Of a stretch of 64,000 nucleotides of DNA, positions 16,668 to 64,000 are shown in pieces. Source of the DNA: Actinomycetota bacterium (lineage in GTDB: Bacteria; Actinomycetota; Acidimicrobiia; Acidimicrobiales; JAMCPL01); contig JAMCPL010000010.1 of the NCBI GenBank assembly GCA_023379675.1, positions 51,021 through 115,020 on the forward strand, in the 5' to 3' direction. Position numbers and translations under genes: made by a program. The notes beneath the pieces are model-generated. The model made no database searches. It saw only the letters and a list, made by a program, of their open reading frames with translations, and was not told where the DNA came from. Numbering within the stretch: the stretch's first letter is position 1; the number at the start of each line of letters is the position of its first letter.

Positions 16668-18036
16668 TCTGTCGCACGCGCGTAGAGTGCACGTGATAGG
16701 TGCTGGGGGCGCAGGCATGAGCGCCATATCGACGGTACTGGCTGCTCGTGGCCATACTGTACATGGGAGCGATTTGAAGAGATCTGCCGTATCAGAGCGT
16801 TTGGAGGCTCTGGGCATACCGGTATCCATCGGCCACCGGGCAGAGAATGTCGGAGATGCCGATATGGTGGTAATTTCCACCGCTATTCCACGGAGCAATC
16901 CGGAACTGCAGTTTGCCATATCCACGGGTATAGAAGTATATTCGCGTGCCGATATGCTTGCTTCGCTGGTGAGTGATCGGCGAGTCATCGCGGTGTCTGG
17001 TACTCACGGAAAGACCACTACGACTTCCATGCTATCGCTTTGCCTGGTGGAAGCCGGTATGCACCCGTCGTTCCTGGTCGGAGGCGATATCAACGAGACG
17101 GGCACCAATGCAGTCTGGGACGAGGGCGAGTGGGTCGTGGTGGAGGCGGACGAAAGCGACGGAACGTTTCTGTCGCTCGACACAGAGGTGGCGGTAATCA
17201 CGAACATCGAACCAGACCACCTGGACCATTACGGCGATTTTGAGTCTTATGTGGCCGCCTTTGTCGATTTTGCATCCATGGCCAAGCGAGGCTTTGTGAC
17301 GAGTGCTGATAATGCGCGTGTCGCGGAGATTGCTCGTGATCTAGGCGGAGAATCGGTCGGCTTCGACAAAGGTGCGTCATGGCGCATAGTTGAAGCGACA
17401 ATAGGTGCCGATGGGTCTTCGTTCAGGCTATCCCATAAGGGAAGCCTTCCTACCGAGATGCAATACGTACCCGTTACGGGTGAGCACAACCTGCGTAACG
17501 GCGCGCTGGCGGCTGTGGCGGCCAACCGTGCAGGGGTATCGTTTGCCGCGACGAGCCGAGCTTTGGCACGATTCAGCGGTGTTGCCAGGCGTTTCGAGCA
17601 CCGTGGGAGCGCGCGAGGGATTACGTTTGTAGATGACTATGCCCATTTGCCTGGAGAGGTGGATGCTACCCTAAGGGCGGCAAGGTTGTTGGCCCCCAGG
17701 CGAATCGTGGCCGTTTTCCAGCCGCACAGGTACAGCCGTACCGCCGTGCTTGCCACCGATTTTGGCGATGCACTGGCCCTGGCGGATGTGGTGGTGGTAT
17801 TGGATGTCTACCCAGCGGGTGAACCAGTTCGCCCCGGAGTTACAGGGTGGTTGGTTGCTGATTCGGTCAATTTCTCGAATCCGGGACTTCCCGTGCACTA
17901 TGTCCCGCGCCGCAGCGATCTTCCTTCACTACTGAATGAGATATTATTGGAAGGCGATTTGTGTCTCACTATGGGTGCAGGCGACATAACCACCCTGGCG
18001 GACGAGATGTTGTTGCGCTGGGGGGAGGCCCGGTAG
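16651..18036 (+). CDS. murC: UDP-N-acetylmuramate--L-alanine ligase MurC
   Basis: VHVIGAGGAGMSAI, VSGTHGKTTTTSM and DDYAHLP are present. It overlaps the murG 3' end by 17 nt. Confidence 0.93.
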   Translation: MPGRVDLSHARRVHVIGAGGAGMSAISTVLAARGHTVHGSDLKRSAVSERLEALGIPVSIGHRAENVGDADMVVISTAIPRSNPELQFAISTGIEVYSRADMLASLVSDRRVIAVSGTHGKTTTTSMLSLCLVEAGMHPSFLVGGDINETGTNAVWDEGEWVVVEADESDGTFLSLDTEVAVITNIEPDHLDHYGDFESYVAAFVDFASMAKRGFVTSADNARVAEIARDLGGESVGFDKGASWRIVEATIGADGSSFRLSHKGSLPTEMQYVPVTGEHNLRNGALAAVAANRAGVSFAATSRALARFSGVARRFEHRGSARGITFVDDYAHLPGEVDATLRAARLLAPRRIVAVFQPHRYSRTAVLATDFGDALALADVVVVLDVYPAGEPVRPGVTGWLVADSVNFSNPGLPVHYVPRRSDLPSLLNEILLEGDLCLTMGAGDITTLADEMLLRWGEAR

Positions 18037-40266: not shown

Positions 40267-40845
40267 ATGATGCGGAAACACGTGACAATCGATAATCTTT
40301 CTGGTAAGGAGAGCATGGAGTCAGGAGGGAGGCCGGATCGCGGCCCAGGCATGCTCGAGACCGGTTCGGTCCTAGGCGGCGCTAGCGGTAGCGCTGCGAG
40401 TAGCGACACAGGCGGCGGCGGTGATGATCAGCCACCTGCCACAGAGACGGTAGGCCAGCCTGCCAAGGTCATGAGGATCGGGATGATGGTCAGGCAGTTG
40501 CTGGAAGAGGTACGCCAGGCACCGCTCGACGAAGCCAGCAGGGTGCGGATGAAGGAGATATATGAGACCTCTGTCGCTGAGCTGGCTGGAGCTCTGAGTC
40601 CCGAGCTCTCCGAGGAACTTGATCGCCTGTCCATACCTTTCGAGGGGACCGCACCCTCGGAGGCTGAGCTTCGGGTGGCTCAGGCTCAGCTTGTGGGGTG
40701 GCTGGAAGGGCTCTTTCATGGCATCCAGGCCACGCTGGTAGCCCAGCAGATGGCCGCCAGGGCTCAGCTGGAGGAGATGCGGAGCCGGGAGCTGCCCTCT
40801 GGCATGCAGGACACCGTTGCGCATAGACCGGGCACCTATCTCTGA
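40267..40845 (+). CDS. bpa: Bacterial proteasome activator Bpa/PafE-like (DUF2587)
   Basis: AKVMRIGMMVRQLLEEVR..LDEASR.R..EIYETS..EL...LSPEL..EL..L.....PSEAELR.AQAQLVGWLEGLFHGIQ with a C-terminal ..PGTYL* (compare the GQYL 20S-docking motif). The start is uncertain (ORF track 40186). Confidence 0.75.
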   Translation: MMRKHVTIDNLSGKESMESGGRPDRGPGMLETGSVLGGASGSAASSDTGGGGDDQPPATETVGQPAKVMRIGMMVRQLLEEVRQAPLDEASRVRMKEIYETSVAELAGALSPELSEELDRLSIPFEGTAPSEAELRVAQAQLVGWLEGLFHGIQATLVAQQMAARAQLEEMRSRELPSGMQDTVAHRPGTYL

Positions 40846-40896
40846 TCTTTCGCTATCTCTGATCTTTCGCTATCTCTGACCTTTCCCTATCTCGAG
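40837..40896 (+). repeat. 17-nt tandem repeat x3.5 (TATCTCTGATCTTTCGC) beginning inside the last bpa codons
   Basis: Units lie at 40837-40853, 40854-40870 and 40871-40887 (2 mismatches), with a partial unit at 40888-40896. The first unit contains TAT CTC TGA, which encodes Y-L-stop of bpa. Confidence 0.9.
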
Positions 40897-40938
40897 TCGT
40901 AATTCATCGTCTGCGGACTTGAACCCGTACGCGAGGCC

Positions 40939-41047
40939 ACACGATCTGTTTTGTAGCTTCAAGAGCCATTGCGCCGGTGAAATTGTTTGATGAGGTGGGT
41001 CGCATATACTACACGATCCGTTTTGTAGCTTCAAGAGCCATTGCGCC
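40939..41047. repeat. Repeat-spacer-repeat unit 1: 37-nt direct repeat x2 (1 mismatch) with a 35-nt spacer
   Basis: ACACGATC[T/C]GTTTTGTAGCTTCAAGAGCCATTGCGCC occurs at 40939-40975 and 41011-41047. The spacer is GGTGAAATTGTTTGATGAGGTGGGTCGCATATACT. Confidence 0.9.
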
Positions 41048-41188
41048 AGGTGCATCGTGTCGCTTGACGACCGAGGATGCGTCGGGACGTGGGTTGTGCT
41101 AATGATTGTAACCATAGGCCGCGACCACCGGCGAACCGGCTCCGTGGTCTGCATGGCGCACCACTACTAGTGATAGAGGAGGTCCATA

Positions 41189-44100
41189 TTGAGCGGTACG
41201 AAGTCATTTGTGCACTTGCATACTCATACTGAATTTTCCATGCTGGACGGCGCGTCCAGGATCGATGATCTCATTGATGCATGCTTGGCGGACCGCCAGC
41301 CGGCAATCGCCATCACTGATCATGGGAACCTGTACGGGGTTCTCGACTTTTATGAAGCATGCAGGAATAAAGGCATAAAGCCGATCATCGGCCTGGAGGC
41401 ATACATGGCCGCTGAATCCCGCTTCGAGCGGCCTGTTGCCAGAGGTAGGCTGGACGATGACATGGGTGGGGAATCGGAGAAGGGTTCCAAGGTCTACTAC
41501 CACCTCATAGTATTGGCGGAGACATCCGCCGGCTACAAAAATCTCATGAAGATAGCCTCCTATGGTTCCGTGGACGGTGGTTACTACTATAAGCCCCGGA
41601 TCGATTGGGAAATACTGGAGACATTCCACGAAGGCCTGAACGTCACTACGGCGTGCCTGGGAGGGCTCGTGCCACAGGCGCTGATTGCGGAAGATACCCA
41701 GAGGGCCGAGAAGCTGGCAGGCCGTTTACAGGACATCTTCGGGAAAGATCACTTTTTTGTCGAGATACAGGACCATGGGATTGCCGATCAGCGCCGTATC
41801 TTGCCTGCCCTGGTCAAGCTTGCCCGCAAACTGGATGCTCCGCTTGTCGCTACCAATGATAGCCACTACATACATAGGGAAGACGCGTTGGCTCATGATG
41901 CCCTGCTCTGCATACAGACGCGCAAACCCAAGGACGATCCAAGCCGGCTCAAGTTCGAAGGCACCGAGCATTACCTGAAAACGAACCAAGAGATGCGTGA
42001 CGTTTTCCGGGAATTTCCTGATGCATGCGACAATACCATCGAGATCGCCGAACGCACTCATGTGGAGATCGACTTCGGTTATGACGCGCTGCCGGAGTAT
42101 CCTCTCCCCTCGCATATTACCGTCTCCATGCCGGGTGCCTCGTACAAGGAGCGTGGCGATGCATATTTGAAACAGGTCGCTTACGAGGGCGCGGAGAAAC
42201 GGTACGGCTCACCGCTGGAGGAACATGTGAATCAGCGGATTTCTTATGAATTGTCAGTGATCTCGCAGATGGGGTTTTCCTCGTATTTCTTGATTGTGGC
42301 GGACCTGGTGGATCATGCCAAGAAGTCCGGCATCAGGGTAGGTCCGGGCCGTGGGTCGGCGGCGGGGTGCTGCGTGGCATATTGCCTTGGGATAGTGGAA
42401 CTGGATCCCATTCGCTACGATCTTCTGTTCGAGCGGTTTCTCAACCCTGGGCGCAAGCAGATGCCCGATATCGATATGGATTTTGACGAGCGCTACCGTG
42501 GCGAGATGATCAATTATGCCGCCAGGCGTTACGGAGAGGACCATGTTGCCCAGATCATTACGTTTTCCACCATAAAGGCCAGGGCTGCGGTGAGGGACGC
42601 TGCAAGGGTGCTTGGCTATCCATATGTGGTGGGCGACAAGATCGCAAAGGCGATGCCTCCTCTGGTCATGGGCCGCGATACGCCACTGAAGGCCTGTTTC
42701 GAAAATGTGCCGGGTCATGAGGACGGGTACAGGGTTGCGGGCGATCTACGAGAGATGTACGAGACGGACGAGGATGTAAAGCAGGTGGTGGATGTCGCAC
42801 GCGGGCTGGAGGGATTGCGTCGCCAGGACAGCATACATGCAGCGGCGGTGGTGATCACCCGTGAGTCGCTTATGGAATATCTTCCCGTACAGCGCAAGCC
42901 TGAGCAGGGAAGGGACTTGTCTGAAGCTCCTTTGGTTACGCAGTACGAGATGCACGGGGTGGAGAAATTAGGGCTCTTGAAGATGGACTTTCTGGGTCTG
43001 CGCAATCTTTCCGTGATAACGCGTGCCATTGAAATCATTGAACAGTCCACAGGAGAAGAAGTCGACATCGACAAGGTGCCATTGGATGACACCGAGGTCT
43101 ATTCCATGCTATGCAAGGGAAACTCTATAGGTATATTCCAGCTGGAAGGCAGCCAGATGCGTAGCTTGATGAGGTCGCTGCAGCCTACCTGTTTCGACGA
43201 CATCGCGGCCCTGGTGGCTCTTTACAGGCCTGGCCCGATGGCAGCCAATATGCATCGTGACTATGCAGACAGGAAAAATGGTCGTGCTCCGATCACGTAC
43301 CTACATGATGACCTCGAACCAATATTGAAAGATACTTACGGCTTGATGATCTATCAGGAGTCGGTGATGAGGGTGGCACAGCGTTTTGCCGGCTACAGCC
43401 TCGAGGAGGCGGACAATCTGCGCAAGGCATGTGGCAAGAAAGATCGTGACCTGATTGCCAAGGAACGAGATAAGTTTGTCTCGGGATGTGTGGAGAGCGG
43501 GTACGGGGAAAAGCTTGGCACCCAGTTGTTCGACATCATAGAGCCATTTGCCGATTATGCATTCAACAAGTCCCACTCGTATGGCTACGGGCTTATAGCG
43601 TATCAGAATGCCTGGTTGAAGGTGCATTACCCGGTGGAGTACATGTGTGCCCTGCTGTCATCGGTGAGAGACGATAAGGATAAGACCGCCGTTTACCTGT
43701 CGGAGTGCAAGTCCATGAATATCGAGGTACTGGTGCCCGATGTCAATCGGTCTCAGGTGGACTTCACCCCGCTGCATCAGGGAGGGGAGGACTGCATACT
43801 CTTTGGATTGGCGGCCGTACGCAACGTAGGTACCTCTATTGTAGAGAAGATCATCGAGACGCGTGATCAAGGCGGTGCATTCCAGGATTTCCATGACTTC
43901 TGCACGAGGGTGCCGCAGGCTGTGTTGGGACAGAAGCCGCTGCAGTCGTTGATCCTCGCGGGTGCTTTCGATTCACTTGGGCATAAGAGAAAGGGCTTGC
44001 TCGACAGTGCAGAGGCCATCTCCAGGCAGGTACAGTTAAGGCGGAAGGAAGAGGAAGCGGGAGTGATGACCCTCTTTACGATGTTGGAGGAGAACGGGGC

Positions 44101-44983: not shown

Positions 44984-45682
44984 GTGGTTATGGGATTTGA
45001 AGTTGACACAAGAGATTGTTCCATCCTGAGTGATTCCGAGTTCGAGGCCATGGCTGAGCTGGCAGGTGGAAGAGCTGGATTGTTCGATATAGGGTTTCTT
45101 TCTAAGCAGAGGGACGAGTGGGTGCTGGTCTGTACGGTGAAGGAAGGCTCGAAGTTGAGGGCTTATTCCTTTTTCACCCTCGAAAGGATTGGTGGTACAC
45201 CAGCAGTGCTGATCGGTGTGGCCGATAGCGACGGAACCGGGAAGTCTGCAAAGGCGGTGGATCTGCTGCTGGCGGAGCACTTCAGAAAGGCGGTACTGGC
45301 CTTTCCCGACGAAGACGTGCTGGTGTGCGGGATGGCGATCTTTCCTGCCGTATACTCGGTGTTCGGCGGTCTGAACGATGTCGTTCCAAGACCTGGATAC
45401 AAGCCGACTGGCGAGGAAAGAGCGTGGGCTAGGCGTATTGCAAGACGGTTCAGCGCCGATGGCCAGATAGATGACAGGAACTTCGTGTTGAACTGCGGTG
45501 GTCGGCCCACTACGGGTGTGCTCAATCTGGGGAAGAGCCGTACAGGCGAGGAACCGGACCATGACATCATGTCGCTTTTTGGAGGGATAGATCATGCTTC
45601 TGGCGATAGGATTGTGGTGTGCGGGTGGGCCATGGCGGAAGATCTCGCATCGGGGGCGTTGCTCAAGAGGCCAAGCGGGTAG
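44984..45682 (+). CDS. Hypothetical protein (232 aa)
   Basis: Long ORF with a GGAGAG-like purine tract upstream. No family was recognised. An equally long antisense ORF (44906..45595) makes the strand less certain. Confidence 0.45.
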   Translation: MVMGFEVDTRDCSILSDSEFEAMAELAGGRAGLFDIGFLSKQRDEWVLVCTVKEGSKLRAYSFFTLERIGGTPAVLIGVADSDGTGKSAKAVDLLLAEHFRKAVLAFPDEDVLVCGMAIFPAVYSVFGGLNDVVPRPGYKPTGEERAWARRIARRFSADGQIDDRNFVLNCGGRPTTGVLNLGKSRTGEEPDHDIMSLFGGIDHASGDRIVVCGWAMAEDLASGALLKRPSG

Positions 45683-45696
45683 TCACGCTCTAAGCC

Positions 45697-45805
45697 GTCG
45701 TGCCAGTGTGTGTTTCCACGGGTGCCAGAAGCCTGCGTTCCTGAGGTTGCTCTGTTCACCGAATCGGTGTCGTGCCAGTGTGTGTTTCCACGGGTGCCAG
45801 AAGCC
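45697..45805. repeat. Repeat-spacer-repeat unit 2: perfect 37-nt direct repeat x2 with a 35-nt spacer
   Basis: GTCGTGCCAGTGTGTGTTTCCACGGGTGCCAGAAGCC occurs at 45697-45733 and 45769-45805. The spacer is TGCGTTCCTGAGGTTGCTCTGTTCACCGAATCGGT. Confidence 0.92.
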
Positions 45806-45894: not shown

Positions 45895-46647
45895 TCAAGG
45901 ACGGGGGATCAACATTGCCAGAGTCTTGTAACAATGGCCGTCATGTGGTGCGTCCAAGGCCACCAGCAGGCAATAGGGGCGAAATCCTATTGCTTCCTCG
46001 AGTTCCTTGGCTTGGAGCGTTCCGCTCTTGGTCATGCTGAGGATGCGTTGCAGATTTCTGCTGGAGACCGGCATTATTGTGTCCACCGTACCGGAGGTCA
46101 GCCTTGCCCATGATGAGCCGTCGTCCCGTAGGAACAATAATATATGGTCCACCTTCTTGATCAGGGCGACCGATGGGTGTTGCCCGTTGAAATCCCAATA
46201 CGGTGCGGACCAGCCTGGGAATCCGAGCAAGTTCTTCGGGAGGGGGGTCGCAATCTCCTTCAGCAGCATCCGGGCGAATCGGGCCGCCAGGAAGCCATGC
46301 AGCTGGGGAGTACCGGTAACGGTGATGGCGTCTGGAAATGCTGGATCCTCGGCACTTGTTTCTGTGGAGCACTCCGCCGACAGGACGTCAAACGACTTCT
46401 CTTCCTGGGTGGGAGCTGTTTCGACATCTGGCGACATACCGGCTTGCTGGCTGGTGTTACCGCCTATATGAGCAATGTTATCATTCATATAACGATCATC
46501 TCGTAGTCGTATCATGCTATGCCTGTAGGGGTCGATTCCTATGACATCATTGCCAACGTCGGCAAGGAACACGACAACTTGCTGACCAGAGAGTTTTGAG
46601 CGGAGAGAACGCAGGCGCCTACCCGTGAGTGGCCTGGATCTCTTCAA
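45895..46647 (-). CDS. Hypothetical protein (250 aa), possibly DNA-binding
   Basis: The N-terminal LTGRRLRSLRSKLSGQQ.. segment is faintly XRE-HTH-like, followed by an acidic Ser/Thr linker and a C-terminal globular part. No family was recognised. Confidence 0.5.
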   Translation of the reverse strand: MKRSRPLTGRRLRSLRSKLSGQQVVVFLADVGNDVIGIDPYRHSMIRLRDDRYMNDNIAHIGGNTSQQAGMSPDVETAPTQEEKSFDVLSAECSTETSAEDPAFPDAITVTGTPQLHGFLAARFARMLLKEIATPLPKNLLGFPGWSAPYWDFNGQHPSVALIKKVDHILLFLRDDGSSWARLTSGTVDTIMPVSSRNLQRILSMTKSGTLQAKELEEAIGFRPYCLLVALDAPHDGHCYKTLAMLIPRP

Positions 46648-46837
46648 GCGTGATGCCTTTCAAGTGGCGGTTGGCTGGACATGTGCAATTCCCATGTATG
46701 CATGTGCGCCATTATACTCATGCCCGGCGTGCGCTTGCTACCCGGTGCCGACGCAGGCGATGTCGAGGGAGCGCCATTATGCTCATGCCAGCTGCTTGTT
46801 TAGCGCAATGAACCTCAATATTGCTATGATTGTAGGG

Positions 46838-52387: not shown

Positions 52388-52499
52388 GAAGTGGCGGTCT
52401 ACACGGGTTCGACACCTTCAGGCCCCAAAGGGTCTAACGGGAATCTTGGACCAATCGACTCATGAAGTGGCGGTCTACACGGGTTCGACACCTTCAGGC
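52388..52499. repeat. Repeat-spacer-repeat unit 3: perfect 36-nt direct repeat x2 with a 40-nt spacer; one copy covers the LysR stop codon
   Basis: GAAGTGGCGGTCTACACGGGTTCGACACCTTCAGGC occurs at 52388-52423 and 52464-52499. The spacer is CCCAAAGGGTCTAACGGGAATCTTGGACCAATCGACTCAT. Confidence 0.92.
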
Positions 52500-55490: not shown

Positions 55491-56579
55491 ATGTTCGGAG
55501 TACCCAGTACGGGAAATGTCACAAGTATGGTGGATTTGGAGGCGCTACTTGGTGCGGATGCCGAGGACCTGCTGAGCCATACCTGCAAGGGTATTCCTAA
55601 AGAGATGCTGGAGTTGCCAGGGCCGGATTACCTGGACAGAGTGATGTCGGTCAGTGACCGTAACGCAACCGTCCTACGCAATCTGGGCACGCTCTATTCG
55701 CATGGCAACCTTGGAGGGACGGGATACTTGTCCATTCTCCCGGTGGATCAGGGCATCGAGCACTCAGCTGCAGCGAGCTTTTCAAAGAATCCCGCGTATT
55801 TCGATCCGTTCAAACTCTGCGAGCTGGCCGTGGAAGGGGGTTGCTCCGGTATCGCAACCACCCTAGGAGTGCTTGGCATGACTGCGAGGAAGTATGTCCA
55901 CAAGATACCATTTATAGTCAAGCTCAACCACAATGATCTGCTCGTCTACCCCAACCGGTACGATCAGATCATGTTCGCGTCGGTTCGTCAGGCCGCGGAT
56001 CTGGGTGCGGTGGGTGTCGGTGCTACGATATACTTTGGGTCGGAGGAGTCCTCGCGGCAGCTACAGGAGGTGTCAAGTGCGTTTGCCGAGGCTCATAGGA
56101 TGGGAATGTTTACCGTGCTGTGGTGCTACCTACGTAACAACGCGTTCAAGACGCCGGACGCGGATTACCATGTCGCAGCCGATCTCACCGGGCAGGCCAA
56201 TCACATTGGTGTGACCTTGGAGGCAGATCTGATAAAACAGAAACAGCCTGAGCTGAACGGTGGCTATACGGCGTTGCACTTCGGCAAGACCGATCCTCTT
56301 GTATACGATACCCTTGCCACGGATCATCCCGTGGATCTTACCCGTTGGCAGGTGGTCAACTGCTATTCAGGTCGTATCGGGCTGATCAATTCCGGTGGTG
56401 AGTCAAAGGGGGACACTGATCTGGCACAGGCCGTGCGAACAGCTGTCATTAACAAGCGAGCCGGTGGGACCGGGCTCATTGTAGGGCGGAAATCCTTCCA
56501 GCGTCCCATGGATGAAGGAGTGAAGCTGCTCCACGCCATCCAGGGTGTCTTTGCTGACTCCCGGATCACCATAGCCTGA
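55491..56579 (+). CDS. fbaB: Class I fructose-bisphosphate aldolase (FbaB/DhnA type)
   Basis: It is close to the E. coli FbaB pattern ([17 protein letters not shown]...[47 protein letters not shown]). The start is taken at the ATG at 55491, 8 nt after GGAGGA. Confidence 0.88.
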
Positions 56580-56595
56580 CGTACTTCGGTCTGCT

Positions 56596-56711
56596 GCGGC
56601 CATTATGCCGCAGCCCGGTGTCTTTACCAGCACGCGGGCACGCCGGTCGTGAGCGCTACAATGCGATGTAATTAGGCGGCCATTATGCCGCAGCCCGGTG
56701 TCTTTACCAGC
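56596..56711. repeat. Repeat-spacer-repeat unit 4: perfect 36-nt direct repeat x2 with a 44-nt spacer; each copy carries a hairpin
   Basis: GCGGCCATTATGCCGCAGCCCGGTGTCTTTACCAGC occurs at 56596-56631 and 56676-56711. GCGGC-CATTAT-GCCGC forms a stem-loop. The first copy starts 17 nt after the fbaB stop. Confidence 0.92.
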
Positions 56712-56919
56712 TATCGGATCACCATAGTGTAGCGCGTAGAAAGCGTTAAGAAACCAGCTATTCGCGCTAACAACGCGTTAAAAGGCTTCCATTCCGGTAG
56801 CTACACGTGTATAACGGTGCATATGGTACTGATTGACGGATGCAGGCTATGACCTGGCCCGAGATATTACGGATAGTTCATGAGCTGCGGCATGGCGGCC
56901 GCAGCGGATCTGGAGAGTC

Positions 56920-58707
56920 ATGACCTGGCAGGGAGTACTCCAGATATTTGTTCTTATGGGGATAGCGGCCATCCTCGCACGAGTGGTCGGTGGCTACATG
57001 TTCCTGGTGCTTGCCAGGGAAGGTGATGTCAGGTCGGCGAGATCTACGGGTGCTGCCGGGCCTGTAGCTCATACCCCTCTGCTCGATACATGGATCGGGA
57101 CGATAAAGTCTGTACTGGATCGAGTCATCGAACCTGTTGAGCAGGGGATATACCGGATATGCGGGATCAATCCAGATCAGGAGATGCGCTGGACCACGTA
57201 CGCATTTGCATTGCTTGCCGTGAACCTTGTCGGGTTTGCAGTGCTTTTCGTTCTCCTAGGCCTTCAGCAGTGGCTGCCGCTCAATCCTGCCCATATGCCG
57301 AAGATCCCATTCTGGGTAAGCCTGAATACGGCAATCAGTTTCACGACCAATACCAACTGGCAGGCTTACGCAGGGGAGGCGACACTCAGCTACCTGAGCC
57401 AGGCGTGGCTCGTGGTCCAGCAGTTCCTTTCCCCAGTGACCGGCATATGCCTCTTCCTGGCTGTTGCAAGGGGATTCTCCAGGCACAGCACCAAGACGCT
57501 CGGCAACTTCTGGCGCGATTTTGTAAGGACCCTGCTATGGATCGCTGTTCCGGGTGCGATTATCGGCACCATCGTGCTCATAGCCCTTGGTTCCCCGCAG
57601 AACCTGCACGCTTACACTCATGTCACCACCATCCAGGGAGTGCATCAGACTATTGCACAGGGCCCGGTCGCCTCAATGACATCAATCATGCAACTCGGCA
57701 ACAATGGCGGCGGATTTTTCAATATGAATGCCGGCCAACCCTTCGCCGGTCCCAATGTGGCATCGTTGCTTTTCCAGCTGATACTTGGTTTTGCAGTTCC
57801 ATCTGGATGCATATATCTGTTTGGCAGGATGGTGGCCGACGTTCGCCAGGCATGGGCAATCTTTGCGGCGATGGCGATACTTTTTGTTGCAGGCGCGTTG
57901 GTGGTATATGCATTCGAAGCGGCGGGAAATCCGATAATCAATGCGCTGCATCTTGCAGGCCATGGAAACTGGGTGGGGAAGGAGAGCAGGTTTGGCATAG
58001 GATCTAGTTCACTGTTCGAGAACTCCACCACAACCATATCGTGGGGATCTACAGCCGCGGCAAATGACTCACTCACGCCCTTGGCGGGCTTGGTGTTGCT
58101 TTTCAATATGAAAACGGGCGAGGTCATCTTCGGATCCTGGGGGGCAGGGATGATCGGGATGCTTGCCTATGCGGTGCTTGCCGTCTTTCTTGCAGGCCTC
58201 ATGGTGGGACGTACGCCGGAGTACCTTGGCAAGAAGATCGAGTCGTTCGAGGTGAAAATGTCCGTGCTTGCAATGGTGGTACCCAGCTTCGTCATACTCA
58301 TTCTGGCTGCTACATCGGTGGTGATAGGTCCTGGGTTGGCCGGCATCTATAATCCGGGTCCGCACGGCCTCTCGGAGGTGCTATACGCCTTCAGCTCGGG
58401 CGTGGGCAACAACGGTTCGGCTTTTGGTGGCCTCAACGCGGCATCCCCCTGGTATGCGGCAACGGTGGGTATAGCCATGTTGCTGGGGCGCTATGCCATG
58501 TATATACCGCTGGTTGCTCTCGGCGGCTCTCTGGCGGCCAAGCAGAGAATTCCTGCCGGTGCCGGCACCTTTCCTACCCATACTCCACTCTTTGTGGGGT
58601 TGCTCATCGGGACGGTGGTCATTGTAGGAGCTCTCGTGTTCTTTCCGGCCCTTGCGCTCGGACCCATAGCCGAACAGGTGGCCATGCATGCAGGGAGGCT
58701 GTTCTGA
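56920..58707 (+). CDS. kdpA: Potassium-transporting ATPase subunit KdpA
   Basis: [47 protein letters not shown] and [11 protein letters not shown] align with E. coli KdpA from memory. Confidence 0.95.
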
Positions 58708-61548: not shown

Positions 61549-61641
61549 ATGTACGTTGTCTATTACATACTTGCGATAGCGGCCATCGGTATGATCTTTT
61601 GGCTGTTTGTCGCTTATGCCAAGGGCATTGACAGGCTATGA
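61549..61641 (+). CDS. 30-aa hydrophobic micro-protein (KdpF-like paralogue)
   Basis: MYVVYYILAIAAIGMIFWLFVAYAKGIDRL. GAGGAA lies directly upstream. It starts 12 nt after the kdpC stop and ends ..GAC AGG CTA TGA, parallel to the next micro-ORF. Confidence 0.5.
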   Translation: MYVVYYILAIAAIGMIFWLFVAYAKGIDRL

Positions 61642-61702
61642 GCCAGGTCGGGCGCGTGATCGACATGTCCAGGGTTTCTGAGATCGTGAGGAGTGGTGGA
61701 CT

Positions 61703-62290: not shown

Positions 62291-63751
62291 TCAGAAATGC
62301 AGATCGGAGAGTTCGGGCACTGTACGGCATGCCCTGTCACGTGCAGCCAGGAAGCGACCACGCCGCAGGGTGCGCTCATCATCGCTGTATCTGGGTTCCA
62401 TCACTTTTGCCGGGCGGTACAATTTCGCAAGGTCGTCCGTGTCACGCCATATACCTACAGCCATCCCTGCCAGCAAGCCAGCGCCGAGCGTGGTGGCCTC
62501 CGTAACCCGGGATACTTCCACAGGACGTCCAGACAGATCGGCCAGCATCTGGGCAAATATCTCGTTGGTGGACATGCCTCCATCCATCCTCACGGTAGGT
62601 ATCCTGAGACCTGTGTCCTGCTCGGCTGCATCGATCAGGTCCACGCCGCGATGAGCGATACCTTCCAGGACGGCCCGGACCATCTGAGCCTTGGTGGTTC
62701 CGCCCGTGACGCCGAAGAACGCTCCCCTGGCGCCGAAATCCCATACGGGCGTACCCAAACCCATGAGCGCCGGCACGAAGTATACGTCCCTCGTATCATT
62801 GCACGATGCAGCAGCGGTGGCGGATTCCTCCGGAGAGTCGATTAGACCGAGATCGTCGACGAGCCAGGTCACTGCCGCTCCCGCCGCAAGCATGAGAGCT
62901 TCCACTCCCCAGGTAAGTGCGGCATTGCGCTGCCAGGCAATTATTGGTATGGTAGCGCCCGCAGGCCCTGTGTAAGAGAACTGGGGGCGCATATCACCCG
63001 TGCAGCAGTCGAGCATTGCTCCGGTTCCAAATGTGATCTTCGCTGATCCGGCATGCGTGCAGCCCTGACCGGCCATGGATGCCTGCTGATCGCCGACCAT
63101 TGCCGTTACCGGAGGGCGACCTGGTAGGATCGAGGCGATACCCGCCACGCCGGAGGTGTCCACCACCTGCGGCAGGCAGCTCTCAGGTATCCGCAGCACT
63201 GACAGGAGATCTGCGTTCCAGCCCGTGCCGTCATCGCGCAAAAGAGCGGTCATGGCTGCATTGCTCGCGTCGGTCACATGGATGGCTCCAGCGGAAAGTT
63301 TCAGGGCAATCCAGGAATCCACCGTACCGAAACAGAGGTCCCTGGTTCTCTCCGGATCGACCGAGTCCATAATCGCCTCTACCTTTGTGGCCGAGGCGTT
63401 TGGCGGGACATGGTAGCCCATGCCTGCCAGTTCCACACACCTGAATACCGTGCGCAGGTCCTGCCATCCGATGGCGGGTGCAACCGGCTTGCTGGTTTTC
63501 CGGTCCCATACCACAGTCGTGGAGCGCTGGTTGGTGATGCCAACGGCTGCCACCGATCCGGCCTGCTGCAGCACTGAGATTGCCAGTTCCACGGCGTCAC
63601 GCGCAAGAGCTTCCGCATCCAGTTCGAGCATACCTGGTGCAGGTATGGCGGAAGCAAGCCTTTTTTGCTGGAGGTGCCCGACTTCACCTTCAGGCGTTAC
63701 GAGCCCGGCCCGTATAGAAGTGGTACCAACATCAATGACCAGTATGCTCAT
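62291..63751 (-). CDS. glpK: FGGY family carbohydrate kinase, glycerol-kinase-like
   Basis: ILVIDVGTTSIRAGLV, FGTVDSWIALKLSAGAIHVTDASNA, MDGGMSTNEIFAQMLADL and ATTLGAGLLAGMAVGIW are present. Confidence 0.75.
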   Translation of the reverse strand: MSILVIDVGTTSIRAGLVTPEGEVGHLQQKRLASAIPAPGMLELDAEALARDAVELAISVLQQAGSVAAVGITNQRSTTVVWDRKTSKPVAPAIGWQDLRTVFRCVELAGMGYHVPPNASATKVEAIMDSVDPERTRDLCFGTVDSWIALKLSAGAIHVTDASNAAMTALLRDDGTGWNADLLSVLRIPESCLPQVVDTSGVAGIASILPGRPPVTAMVGDQQASMAGQGCTHAGSAKITFGTGAMLDCCTGDMRPQFSYTGPAGATIPIIAWQRNAALTWGVEALMLAAGAAVTWLVDDLGLIDSPEESATAAASCNDTRDVYFVPALMGLGTPVWDFGARGAFFGVTGGTTKAQMVRAVLEGIAHRGVDLIDAAEQDTGLRIPTVRMDGGMSTNEIFAQMLADLSGRPVEVSRVTEATTLGAGLLAGMAVGIWRDTDDLAKLYRPAKVMEPRYSDDERTLRRGRFLAARDRACRTVPELSDLHF

Positions 63752-63755
63752 TTAC

Positions 63756-64000
63756 CTATCTTACCGTCTCATCTCCCACCGTCTCATCTCCCACCGTCTC
63801 ATCTCCCACTTGGCCGGAATCGTCAGACTTTCCCAGGAGAGCGATGATCATGGCATCGGCAGCCAGGAAGATCACAGCTATCCAGGTAAGGGTGCTTGCA
63901 GTGGCAAACTGGGGTGCCCAGCCTGCGCCAGGCAGGAAACGTTCCACGGCCTGGCGATAGACCATGTATGTCCCGGTTGCCACTACGGTCGTGAGGGCGG
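63756..64000 (-). CDS. Membrane protein, 5' partial (runs off window end), with a C-terminal (GDETV)x3 repeat
   Basis: The frame is open to position 64000. It has a hydrophobic segment LTWIAVIFLAADAMIIALLG. It ends 4 nt upstream of the glpK-like start, so the two may form an operon. Confidence 0.5.
   Translation of the reverse strand, partial: ALTTVVATGTYMVYRQAVERFLPGAGWAPQFATASTLTWIAVIFLAADAMIIALLGKSDDSGQVGDETVGDETVGDETVR

Follow-up and report, generated by a model that had tools for sequence, protein, structure and literature searches.

The spacer between bpa and dnaE in an uncultured bacterium of the Acidimicrobiia, known from mine tailings and from acid mine drainage, holds a unit, here called U1, in which two copies of a 37-nucleotide (nt) sequence enclose 35 nt of other DNA. 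The unit lies in the 64,000-nt stretch of contig JAMCPL010000010.1 (assembly GCA_023379675.1) that was analysed here and is referred to as the window. U1 is almost certainly an insertion of captured DNA accompanied by duplication of its target, and it belongs to a class of which 13 events were measured, the minimum number for the clade. The agent that made U1 in this way may be, with a likelihood just short of even, an integrase of CRISPR (short palindromic repeats, clustered and regularly interspaced) adaptation, Cas1-Cas2 or a relative, acting off target. U1 itself is most likely a neutral scar without a function of its own.

The U1 repeat reads ACACGATC[T/C]GTTTTGTAGCTTCAAGAGCCATTGCGCC. A preliminary description of this DNA had reported its two copies, differing by one mismatch, and a 35-nt spacer between them, and both the coordinates and the sequence are exact (Table 1). 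The mismatch falls at repeat position 9, where the outgroup strain L096 has C, as does copy 2; the T of copy 1 arose after the duplication. The number of exact 36-mers expected by chance at such spacings in 64 kb is about 1e-15, which excludes a chance origin of the pair.

The unit is real DNA and no artefact of assembly. The U1 region is identical in two independent metagenome-assembled genomes (MAGs; GCA_023486005.1 and GCA_027449425.1) and in Logan contigs (k = 31) from several runs, and for all units of the window the same two MAGs and the Logan contigs match at 100%. All four window units, U1 to U4, are present in run X5, which comes from another study and from a strain about 1% diverged. 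In the k = 31 graphs of same-strain runs, U2 and U4 appear as separate repeat-tail, insert and repeat-head contigs, and the unitig made of repeat only stands at about twice the depth of the flanks for U2 and higher (50x) for U4.

Evidence for insertion comes from relatives in which the same sites are empty. Searching by the protein clusters of the genes that flank the units led to a syntenic strain of about 91% DNA identity, assembled in five independent projects (L095-L100). At the U1 site this strain reads ...TAGCC-ATACGGTCCGTTTTGTAGCTTCAACAGCTATTGCGCC-AGGTGCATCG..., that is, a single copy of the target which runs into the sequence found after copy 2 in the window, with no insert. Copy 1 and the insert are missing in L095-L097, and dnaE and its proximal leader are intact there. 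The empty sites of U3 (in L096/L097) and U4 (in L098/L099) are likewise base-exact, with one copy and no insert. At the U2 target, the L097 assembly of the 91% strain is empty, while L095, L096 and L098 hold an unrelated 45-nt insert; the target was hit independently in two lineages. The converse arrangement is also found, with the window providing the single-copy, empty site for two events, E5 and E8, that are occupied in the 91% strain. A third lineage, L115 (about 82% identical), provides the empty site for E6, a unit shared by the window strain and the 91% strain, and L007, in the next-nearest lineage, does so for a unit at the bpa end of L008. In all, base-exact empty sites are available for U1, U2, U3, U4, E5, E6, E8 and the L008 bpa-end unit. 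A contig in same-strain runs that skips 76 nt at U3 is either a true empty allele or a collapsed k = 31 loop and was not used as evidence. Further afield, L007 and L008 have no alignable sequence upstream of dnaE, the closest genome in a DnaE-anchored scan for empty sites had 71% protein identity, and a scan of Joint Genome Institute (JGI) metagenomes anchored on the histidine kinase of the window gave distant paralogues only.

The events are recurrent, independent and nested. They also account for most of the mid-sized length differences between the two strains: over 27 kb aligned at 91.3% identity, seven of the ten insertions or deletions of 40-200 nt are of this class. About 1.6 Mb from 78 other Acidimicrobiia loci contained no units beyond low-complexity repeats in coding sequence and tandem arrays. 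Candidate units in L051, L073, L062 and others were examined and rejected as belonging to these two kinds. The class is therefore restricted to one clade of the Acidimicrobiia.

Three further units in the window share the layout of U1, with an entirely different repeat each time. Four different repeats in one geometry are best read as four separate insertions, each of which duplicated its own target. The remaining events (E5 to E9, U2' and those of the L007/L008 lineage) are known from relatives, from the window itself or from the adjoining part of the contig (Table 1).

Table 1. Repeat-insert-repeat units and their parts. Positions refer to the window unless another sequence is named; lengths are in nt.
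Element	Position	Lengths	Remarks
U1	40939-41047	37/35/37 (repeat/insert/repeat)	
U1 repeat copy 1	40939-40975	37	T at position 9
U1 insert (S1)	40976-41010	35 (36 counting A41011)	captured DNA; 43% G+C
U1 repeat copy 2	41011-41047	37	contiguous with the original downstream flank
U2	45697-45805	37/35/37	exact copies 45697-45733 and 45769-45805; insert 45734-45768; starts 15 nt past the stop of a gene for a 230-residue protein
U2'	U2 target in L095/L096/L098	repeat 32, insert 45, period 77	insert differs from that of U2
U3	52388-52499	36/40/36	exact copies 52388-52423 and 52464-52499; insert 52424-52463
U4	56596-56711	36/44/36	exact copies 56596-56631 and 56676-56711; insert 56632-56675
E5	41038-41074 (unoccupied target)	37 duplicated around 34 in the related strain	insert AAACCACGTCTTGGTGTTTCGGCCGGGTCCGGAT
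E6 repeat copy 1	56544-56581	38	older unit; end of the class I aldolase gene including the stop
E6 insert	56582-56616	35	hairpin GCTGCGGCC-ATTAT-GCCGCAGC
E6 copy 2, remainder	56712-56734		interrupted by U4; first part at 56617-56631, duplicated at 56697-56711
E7	56849-56949	copies of about 30, period 71	old, common to both strains; copies of the kdpA start (70% identical) at 56849-56878 and 56920-56949
E8	61627-61661 (unoccupied target)	duplication 35/34, insert 38, period 73 in the related strain	kdpF end including the stop; insert bears the hairpin
E9 (ftsY unit)	L101 6032-6157, on the contig of the window and about 4 kb upstream of its first position	repeat 54, insert 18	
L008 unit	very end of bpa (bpa stop) in L008	28+43 (repeat + insert)	
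L007 event	L007	47+23	
Further event	L007/L008 lineage	33+38	

Several of these units lie against or upon one another. The E5 target, documented by a contig of run X6 and by the L095-L097 sequence, overlaps the U1 repeat by its last 10 nt. U4 is nested in E6, the U4 repeat consisting of the last 21 nt of the E6 insert and the first 15 nt of E6 copy 2. In L098/L099 the two E6 copies are identical, with a period of 73. In the window strain, E6 copy 2 (56617-56631 and 56712-56734) departs from copy 1 in two clustered patches, yet its reading frame stays open up to a stop and gives the gene end GVFTSYRITIV. A variant aldolase allele was considered as the source of this altered copy and rejected, as the aldolase of no strain has that ending.

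Many of the units lie at the ends of genes. The repeats of four of them take in a stop codon, namely that of lysR, of the aldolase gene, of kdpF and of bpa, and others begin no more than 15 nt past a stop; in U3 the repeat contains the last codons of the LysR gene, which runs on the minus strand, together with its stop. As one gene end stays intact after the duplication, insertion at such sites is presumably tolerated. One event, E9, lies in frame within ftsY and adds 24 codons, so that the N-terminal region of the protein repeats PSTVKGDISSEARGTHD, the copies being joined by a linker of 6 residues. A degenerate 19-nt pair with one mismatch (46706-46724 and 46771-46789, spacing 65), upstream of or within the start of a short-chain dehydrogenase/reductase (SDR) gene, may represent this class in an old and eroded state. 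The corresponding site of the related strain has a 21-nt pair at a spacing of 58, plus 162 extra nt.

The inserts are DNA captured from elsewhere. For S1, the insert of U1, runs X2 and X6 contain the same 36 nt (40976-41011) in other surroundings, the flanks being AT-rich and unrelated; the X2 copy terminates a 12.2-kb contig of about host depth. For S3, the insert of U3, 36 of the 40 nt (52424-52459) are contained in short contigs with other flanks, exactly in those at 44x and with three mismatches in those at 434x, the host standing at 13.7x; the source of S3 lacks its last 4 nt. No microhomology is seen at the S1 and S3 source junctions. The S3 source is an abundant, microdiverse element, and it is a coding gene, since the variation between runs is synonymous in one frame; its 31-residue peptide has no relative in the protein collection. 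The same source was seen at 3-30x host depth in four runs from three studies and assembles only to fragments of about 100-190 nt.

Another set of inserts shares a hairpin. The family GRTCY-GCTGCGGCC-RYYAT-GCCGCAGC-YCRTGMAC is present in the inserts of E6, E7, E8 and E9 and in one unit known only from read contigs, and it occurs in both orientations, the 41-nt insert of E7 carrying the hairpin in the opposite one. The E6 and E8 inserts (about 35-38 nt) are different, overlapping windows of a longer hairpin-bearing source found in read contigs. The E9 insert is an 18-nt piece of the E7-type variant that stops at the hairpin apex. A search of the hairpin-containing L098 sequence gave no CRISPR or other Rfam family at E<=10. 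The hairpin was also considered as the host's own CRISPR repeat and rejected: a pattern scan of viral contigs yielded no array, and its k-mer depth is just a few-fold above that of the host. Exact scans of IMG/VR for S1 and S3 returned 0 matches, no phage or plasmid was matched when all inserts, along with their contexts, were compared by BLAST, and for S2, S4 and S5 no source came to light in the reads or public collections searched.

The lengths of the parts vary far more than their sum. Over the 13 events the repeat measures 28-54 nt (standard deviation, sd, 6.9) and the insert 18-45 nt (sd 7.9), and repeat plus insert comes to 70-80 nt (mean 73.0, median 72, sd 2.9). Of the ten events in the pair formed by the window strain and the 91% strain, seven have a repeat of 35-38 nt, and the inserts are mostly 34-45 nt. 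The exceptions in this pair (54+18, 32+45 and about 30+41) hold the sum, as do the three events of the L007/L008 lineage. U3 and U4 exceed 72 by 4 and 8 nt, the excess in U3 being the 4 bases that are absent from its source. The boundaries show a weak preference: 8 of 12 events have G as the first duplicated base, and 7 of 12 have C immediately ahead of it (p about 0.014 for each).

How could a single reaction produce these units? In CRISPR spacer acquisition a short duplex is integrated at two staggered phosphates and the gaps are then repaired, which yields just such a product. Applied to U1, a 35-36-nt fragment from elsewhere would have been linked to the DNA between bpa and dnaE at two positions staggered by 36-37 bp, and repair of the two single-stranded gaps would have duplicated the target into a repeat-insert-repeat structure. 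Each unit would then be a one-spacer 'neo-CRISPR' whose repeat is whatever sequence stood at the target. The same reaction would have taken place at least 13 times on the chromosome of this clade, in intergenic DNA, at gene ends and once in frame in ftsY, writing about 72 bases each time. Integration by a spacer integrase fits the data because the modal duplication is 36-37 nt and the inserts 34-45 nt, because microhomology is missing and both orientations occur, and because overlapping windows were sampled from one source and G is found at the first duplicated base. On this reading the clade would have a spacer integrase with a native repeat of about 36-37 nt.

The resemblance to canonical spacer acquisition lies in the staggered integration, the duplication by gap repair, the 34-45-nt inserts and the period of about 72 nt, which arrays built of 36-37-nt repeats also have. 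Unlike canonical acquisition, the units involve neither an array nor a leader, share no repeat and have no cas genes next to them, and their repeats are arbitrary local sequence. A closer parallel is off-target integration by Cas1-Cas2, which has been demonstrated in E. coli to make new repeat-spacer-repeat units, with natural cases described as circumstantial (Nivala et al., 2018, via PMC7054753, PMC6698737 and bioRxiv 10.1101/148544). As far as these accounts describe it, the E. coli reaction likewise places a spacer-sized fragment outside the array and duplicates about a repeat length of target, so that the repeat is local sequence; its inserts come from other DNA, and insertions may recur at favoured sites. 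Differently to the units described here, the E. coli events were, in the same accounts, induced by over-expressing the type I-E Cas1-Cas2, and for natural cases these accounts offer circumstantial evidence only. The clade, for its part, has at least 13 natural events in housekeeping regions, with empty sites, at gene ends and in ftsY, and these are known from their products. The duplications are mostly 35-38 bp, whereas the type I-E repeat is 28 bp. Casposons also employ an integrase of the Cas1 family, the Cas1-solo casposase, and produce target-site duplications. They are elements of several kb with terminal inverted repeats and duplications of about 14-15 bp, unlike the inserts of this clade, which are 18-45 nt long and have no common ends.

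Several observations weigh against an off-target spacer integrase. In about 98 kb of the host contig (the window extended on both sides and annotated with Pfam), which is the part of the host genome covered by the search, there is no cas gene or CRISPR array, nor any integrase, transposase or reverse-transcriptase gene. The targets have no evident shared repeat-like motif and no match to a CRISPR-DR family, and the three source contexts that were recovered show no protospacer-adjacent motif in common. It is unusual, too, for naive adaptation to take up a single hairpin sequence again and again. The weightiest point is that repeat and insert lengths compensate. They are correlated at r = -0.93, and a sum equally tight was obtained in 13 of 100,000 permutations (p about 1e-4). 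Separate rulers for the duplication and for the insert were looked for and the lengths proved to be coupled; independent repeat and spacer rulers would not give a constant sum. To our knowledge, compensating lengths with a sum of about 72 have not been reported for off-target integration. The constant sum suggests either that an integrase measures total contour length at sites without a motif, or that some other process of fixed length is at work.

The second of these options is a serious rival, though less probable than the first agent considered. An undescribed process unconnected with CRISPR would add a fixed quantum of about 72 nt by insertion and duplication: a new or displaced strand of fixed length, made up of the captured or copied insert and of re-copied local target, would be sealed into the chromosome, for instance by a length-limited template-switching polymerase or reverse transcriptase, or by ligation of a protein-wrapped flap of about 70 nt. 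Such a process would make the sum the invariant, as is found (sd 2.9 around the median, against 7-8 for the parts), and would explain why even the extremes keep it (54+18 in ftsY, 47+23 in L007 and 28+43 in L008). The 18-nt insert in ftsY ends at the hairpin apex, as if copying had aborted there and then returned to the target; U3 has 4 extra bases at one junction; and no cas genes were seen in the part of the contig searched. Against a fixed quantum, the two sequenced source junctions have no microhomology, which template switching usually shows to some extent. The repeats of U1-U4 are held at 36-37 nt with inserts of 35-44 nt, resembling the action of a repeat ruler and not of a sum ruler, and the non-canonical events are few (about five). 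We know of no enzyme or pathway that performs insertion-duplication of a fixed quantum. The nearest known products are those of flap ligation or template switching in FEN1 or Pol I 5'-nuclease mutants, which are plain tandem duplications bounded by microhomology. These too are short duplications formed in DNA synthesis, where a displaced strand could set the length and a stop at a hairpin apex is plausible; in contrast to the units of this clade, they have no captured foreign segment and no fixed size of 72 nt.

It is also possible, if doubtful, that the units are made by an undescribed mutational or mobile process confined to this clade. In the form of a new enzyme system, or of a new mode of a Cas1-family integrase that measures total contour length and not repeat and spacer separately, it would write a fixed 72 nt or so, in which a captured fragment of variable length is balanced by re-copied target. 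Its frequency would suffice to make it the chief source of insertions of 40-200 nt, and it would remodel gene ends, plant terminator-like hairpins after genes and add peptide segments in frame.

Explanations that give U1 a function, or assign it to a known kind of repeat, fare much worse than integration by a spacer integrase or a fixed-length process. The preliminary description had loosely likened a core within the 37-mer to type II CRISPR repeats, from which one might propose a functional mini-array or small-RNA locus with a guide from the 35-nt spacer. The CRISPR-like geometry, with about 37 nt in the repeat and about 35 nt in the insert, is real and probably has a meaning, and the inserts do come from other DNA; the 37-mer itself is no CRISPR repeat, being ordinary intergenic sequence of the locus that pre-exists as a single copy in relatives. 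Each unit has just two copies, and the repeat is different in every unit, in the window and in the relatives alike; elsewhere it is the 3' end of lysR, the aldolase gene, kdpF or bpa, the 5' end of kdpA, or ftsY coding sequence. No Rfam family, CRISPR-DR included, matches the window at gathering score or positions 40800-41200 at E<=10. The neighbours are Bpa, DnaE and other housekeeping genes, with no cas9 or other cas gene nearby (a trans-activating CRISPR RNA anti-repeat was not searched for). The 7-nt inverted pair ACACGAT (41011-41017) and ATCGTGT (41054-41060), which had been proposed to close a stem around copy 2, is present; the stem is not significant, with a fold no more stable than that of shuffled sequence (z = +0.16), and the 91% strain has a mutation in one of its arms. 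The RNA runs listed from the same study contained none of the sampled words of this stretch. A functional array at this locus is thus very improbable.

A cis-regulatory element of dnaE, or a conserved leader structure, can be given equally little credit. Its appeal is the position of the unit, and the preliminary description placed it correctly, the dnaE start at 41189 being 141 nt past U1 copy 2. The unit is missing in the 91% strain, whose dnaE and proximal leader are intact, no promoter or terminator consensus was found in or beside U1, and the folding of the element is no better than that of shuffled sequence. U1 may still influence transcription incidentally.

Least probable of all is that U1 is a repetitive extragenic palindromic (REP) sequence or miniature inverted-repeat transposable element (MITE), the footprint of an excised transposon, the product of simple tandem duplication or an artefact of assembly, as short intergenic repeats in MAGs often are: the repeat is single-copy at empty sites and at flank-level depth in reads, the inserts have no common termini and duplications of 28-54 bp are far beyond those known for transposons, tandem duplication or a variable-number tandem repeat (VNTR) is ruled out because in an in-register comparison the insert resembles neither flank, and an artefact would not recur with identical structure across independent assemblies, runs and studies and as diverged copies in other lineages. 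Two outcomes that the preliminary description had itself raised against its reading, a 37-mer dispersed in many copies and a 109-nt block conserved as a whole upstream of dnaE, do not apply, because the 37-mer is single-copy (read depth equal to the flanks, no other sequence contexts, and no further copy in the window at up to 7 mismatches) and the block is unconserved, being missing in the 91% relatives. Mycobacterial interspersed repetitive units (MIRU), VNTR and REP sequences in Actinobacteria form sequence families, tandem or dispersed. MIRU and REP elements resemble the present units as intergenic sequences of 40-100 bp at gene boundaries, which sometimes extend over stop or start codons and vary between strains. 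They differ in that each repeat of this clade is a unique local sequence and the middle is unrelated captured DNA.

If a spacer integrase made these units, they are the clearest natural record so far of off-target CRISPR adaptation, in which each event is documented by dozens of bases, relatives preserve empty sites and one target was hit more than once. Such a record bears on the cost of adaptation to the host genome, on the birth of new CRISPR arrays and on how an integrase recognises its target without a repeat. The effects on genes are tangible in either case: stop and start codons have been duplicated, hairpins placed after genes and 24 codons added to ftsY. The total of about 72 nt is not predicted by current models and points to an integrase ruler not known so far or to a new mechanism. 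In some lineages, candidate CRISPRs with two repeats, which array finders set aside as false positives, may be genuine molecular fossils of this kind.

The window as a whole is core chromosome. It carries trmD, nrdR, the mraW-mur-fts cluster, sepF, divIVA, ileS, lspA, a sigma factor gene, bpa and dnaE, together with genes for a histidine kinase, lysR, marR, the class I aldolase and kdpFABC. The genes that flank U2, 44990-45682 (230 residues) and 45895-46647 (250 residues), encode proteins without a Pfam family, and the 230-residue protein is more than 90% identical in the related strain. On either side of U1, two further features differ in their conservation. A 17-nt tandem repeat (CTATCTCTGATCTTTCG, 3.4 copies) at 40836-40893 begins in the last bpa codons and takes in the stop; it is a lineage-specific expansion, since the 91% strain is single-copy there. 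A 53-nt block of the dnaE leader (41100-41152) is identical in the 91% strain though its surroundings diverge. This block holds the dyad GACCACCGG-CGAA-CCGG..CCGTGGTC and is possibly a conserved leader structure or an operator.

Other length differences between the strains are of more familiar kinds. At about 38822 the 91% strain has 1,818 additional nt, comprising what remains of the gene for an ATP-binding cassette (ABC) ATPase, a gene for an ABC permease and the start of an SDR gene; the window strain has a deletion here, because its flanking ABC ATPase and SDR genes look truncated. In L098, at about 16792-16886 (the site corresponding to window position 62291), there is a 95-nt element with terminal inverted repeats of about 17 nt (TCTGTCCCGYAAATA...) that does not occur in the window. 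It is a conventional MITE, unlike the repeat-insert-repeat units. Finally, a perfect 15-nt tandem repeat (ACCGTCTCATCTCCC, 3.1 copies) adjoins the end of an aftD-like gene at 63763-63809, and its copy number differs in the related strain.

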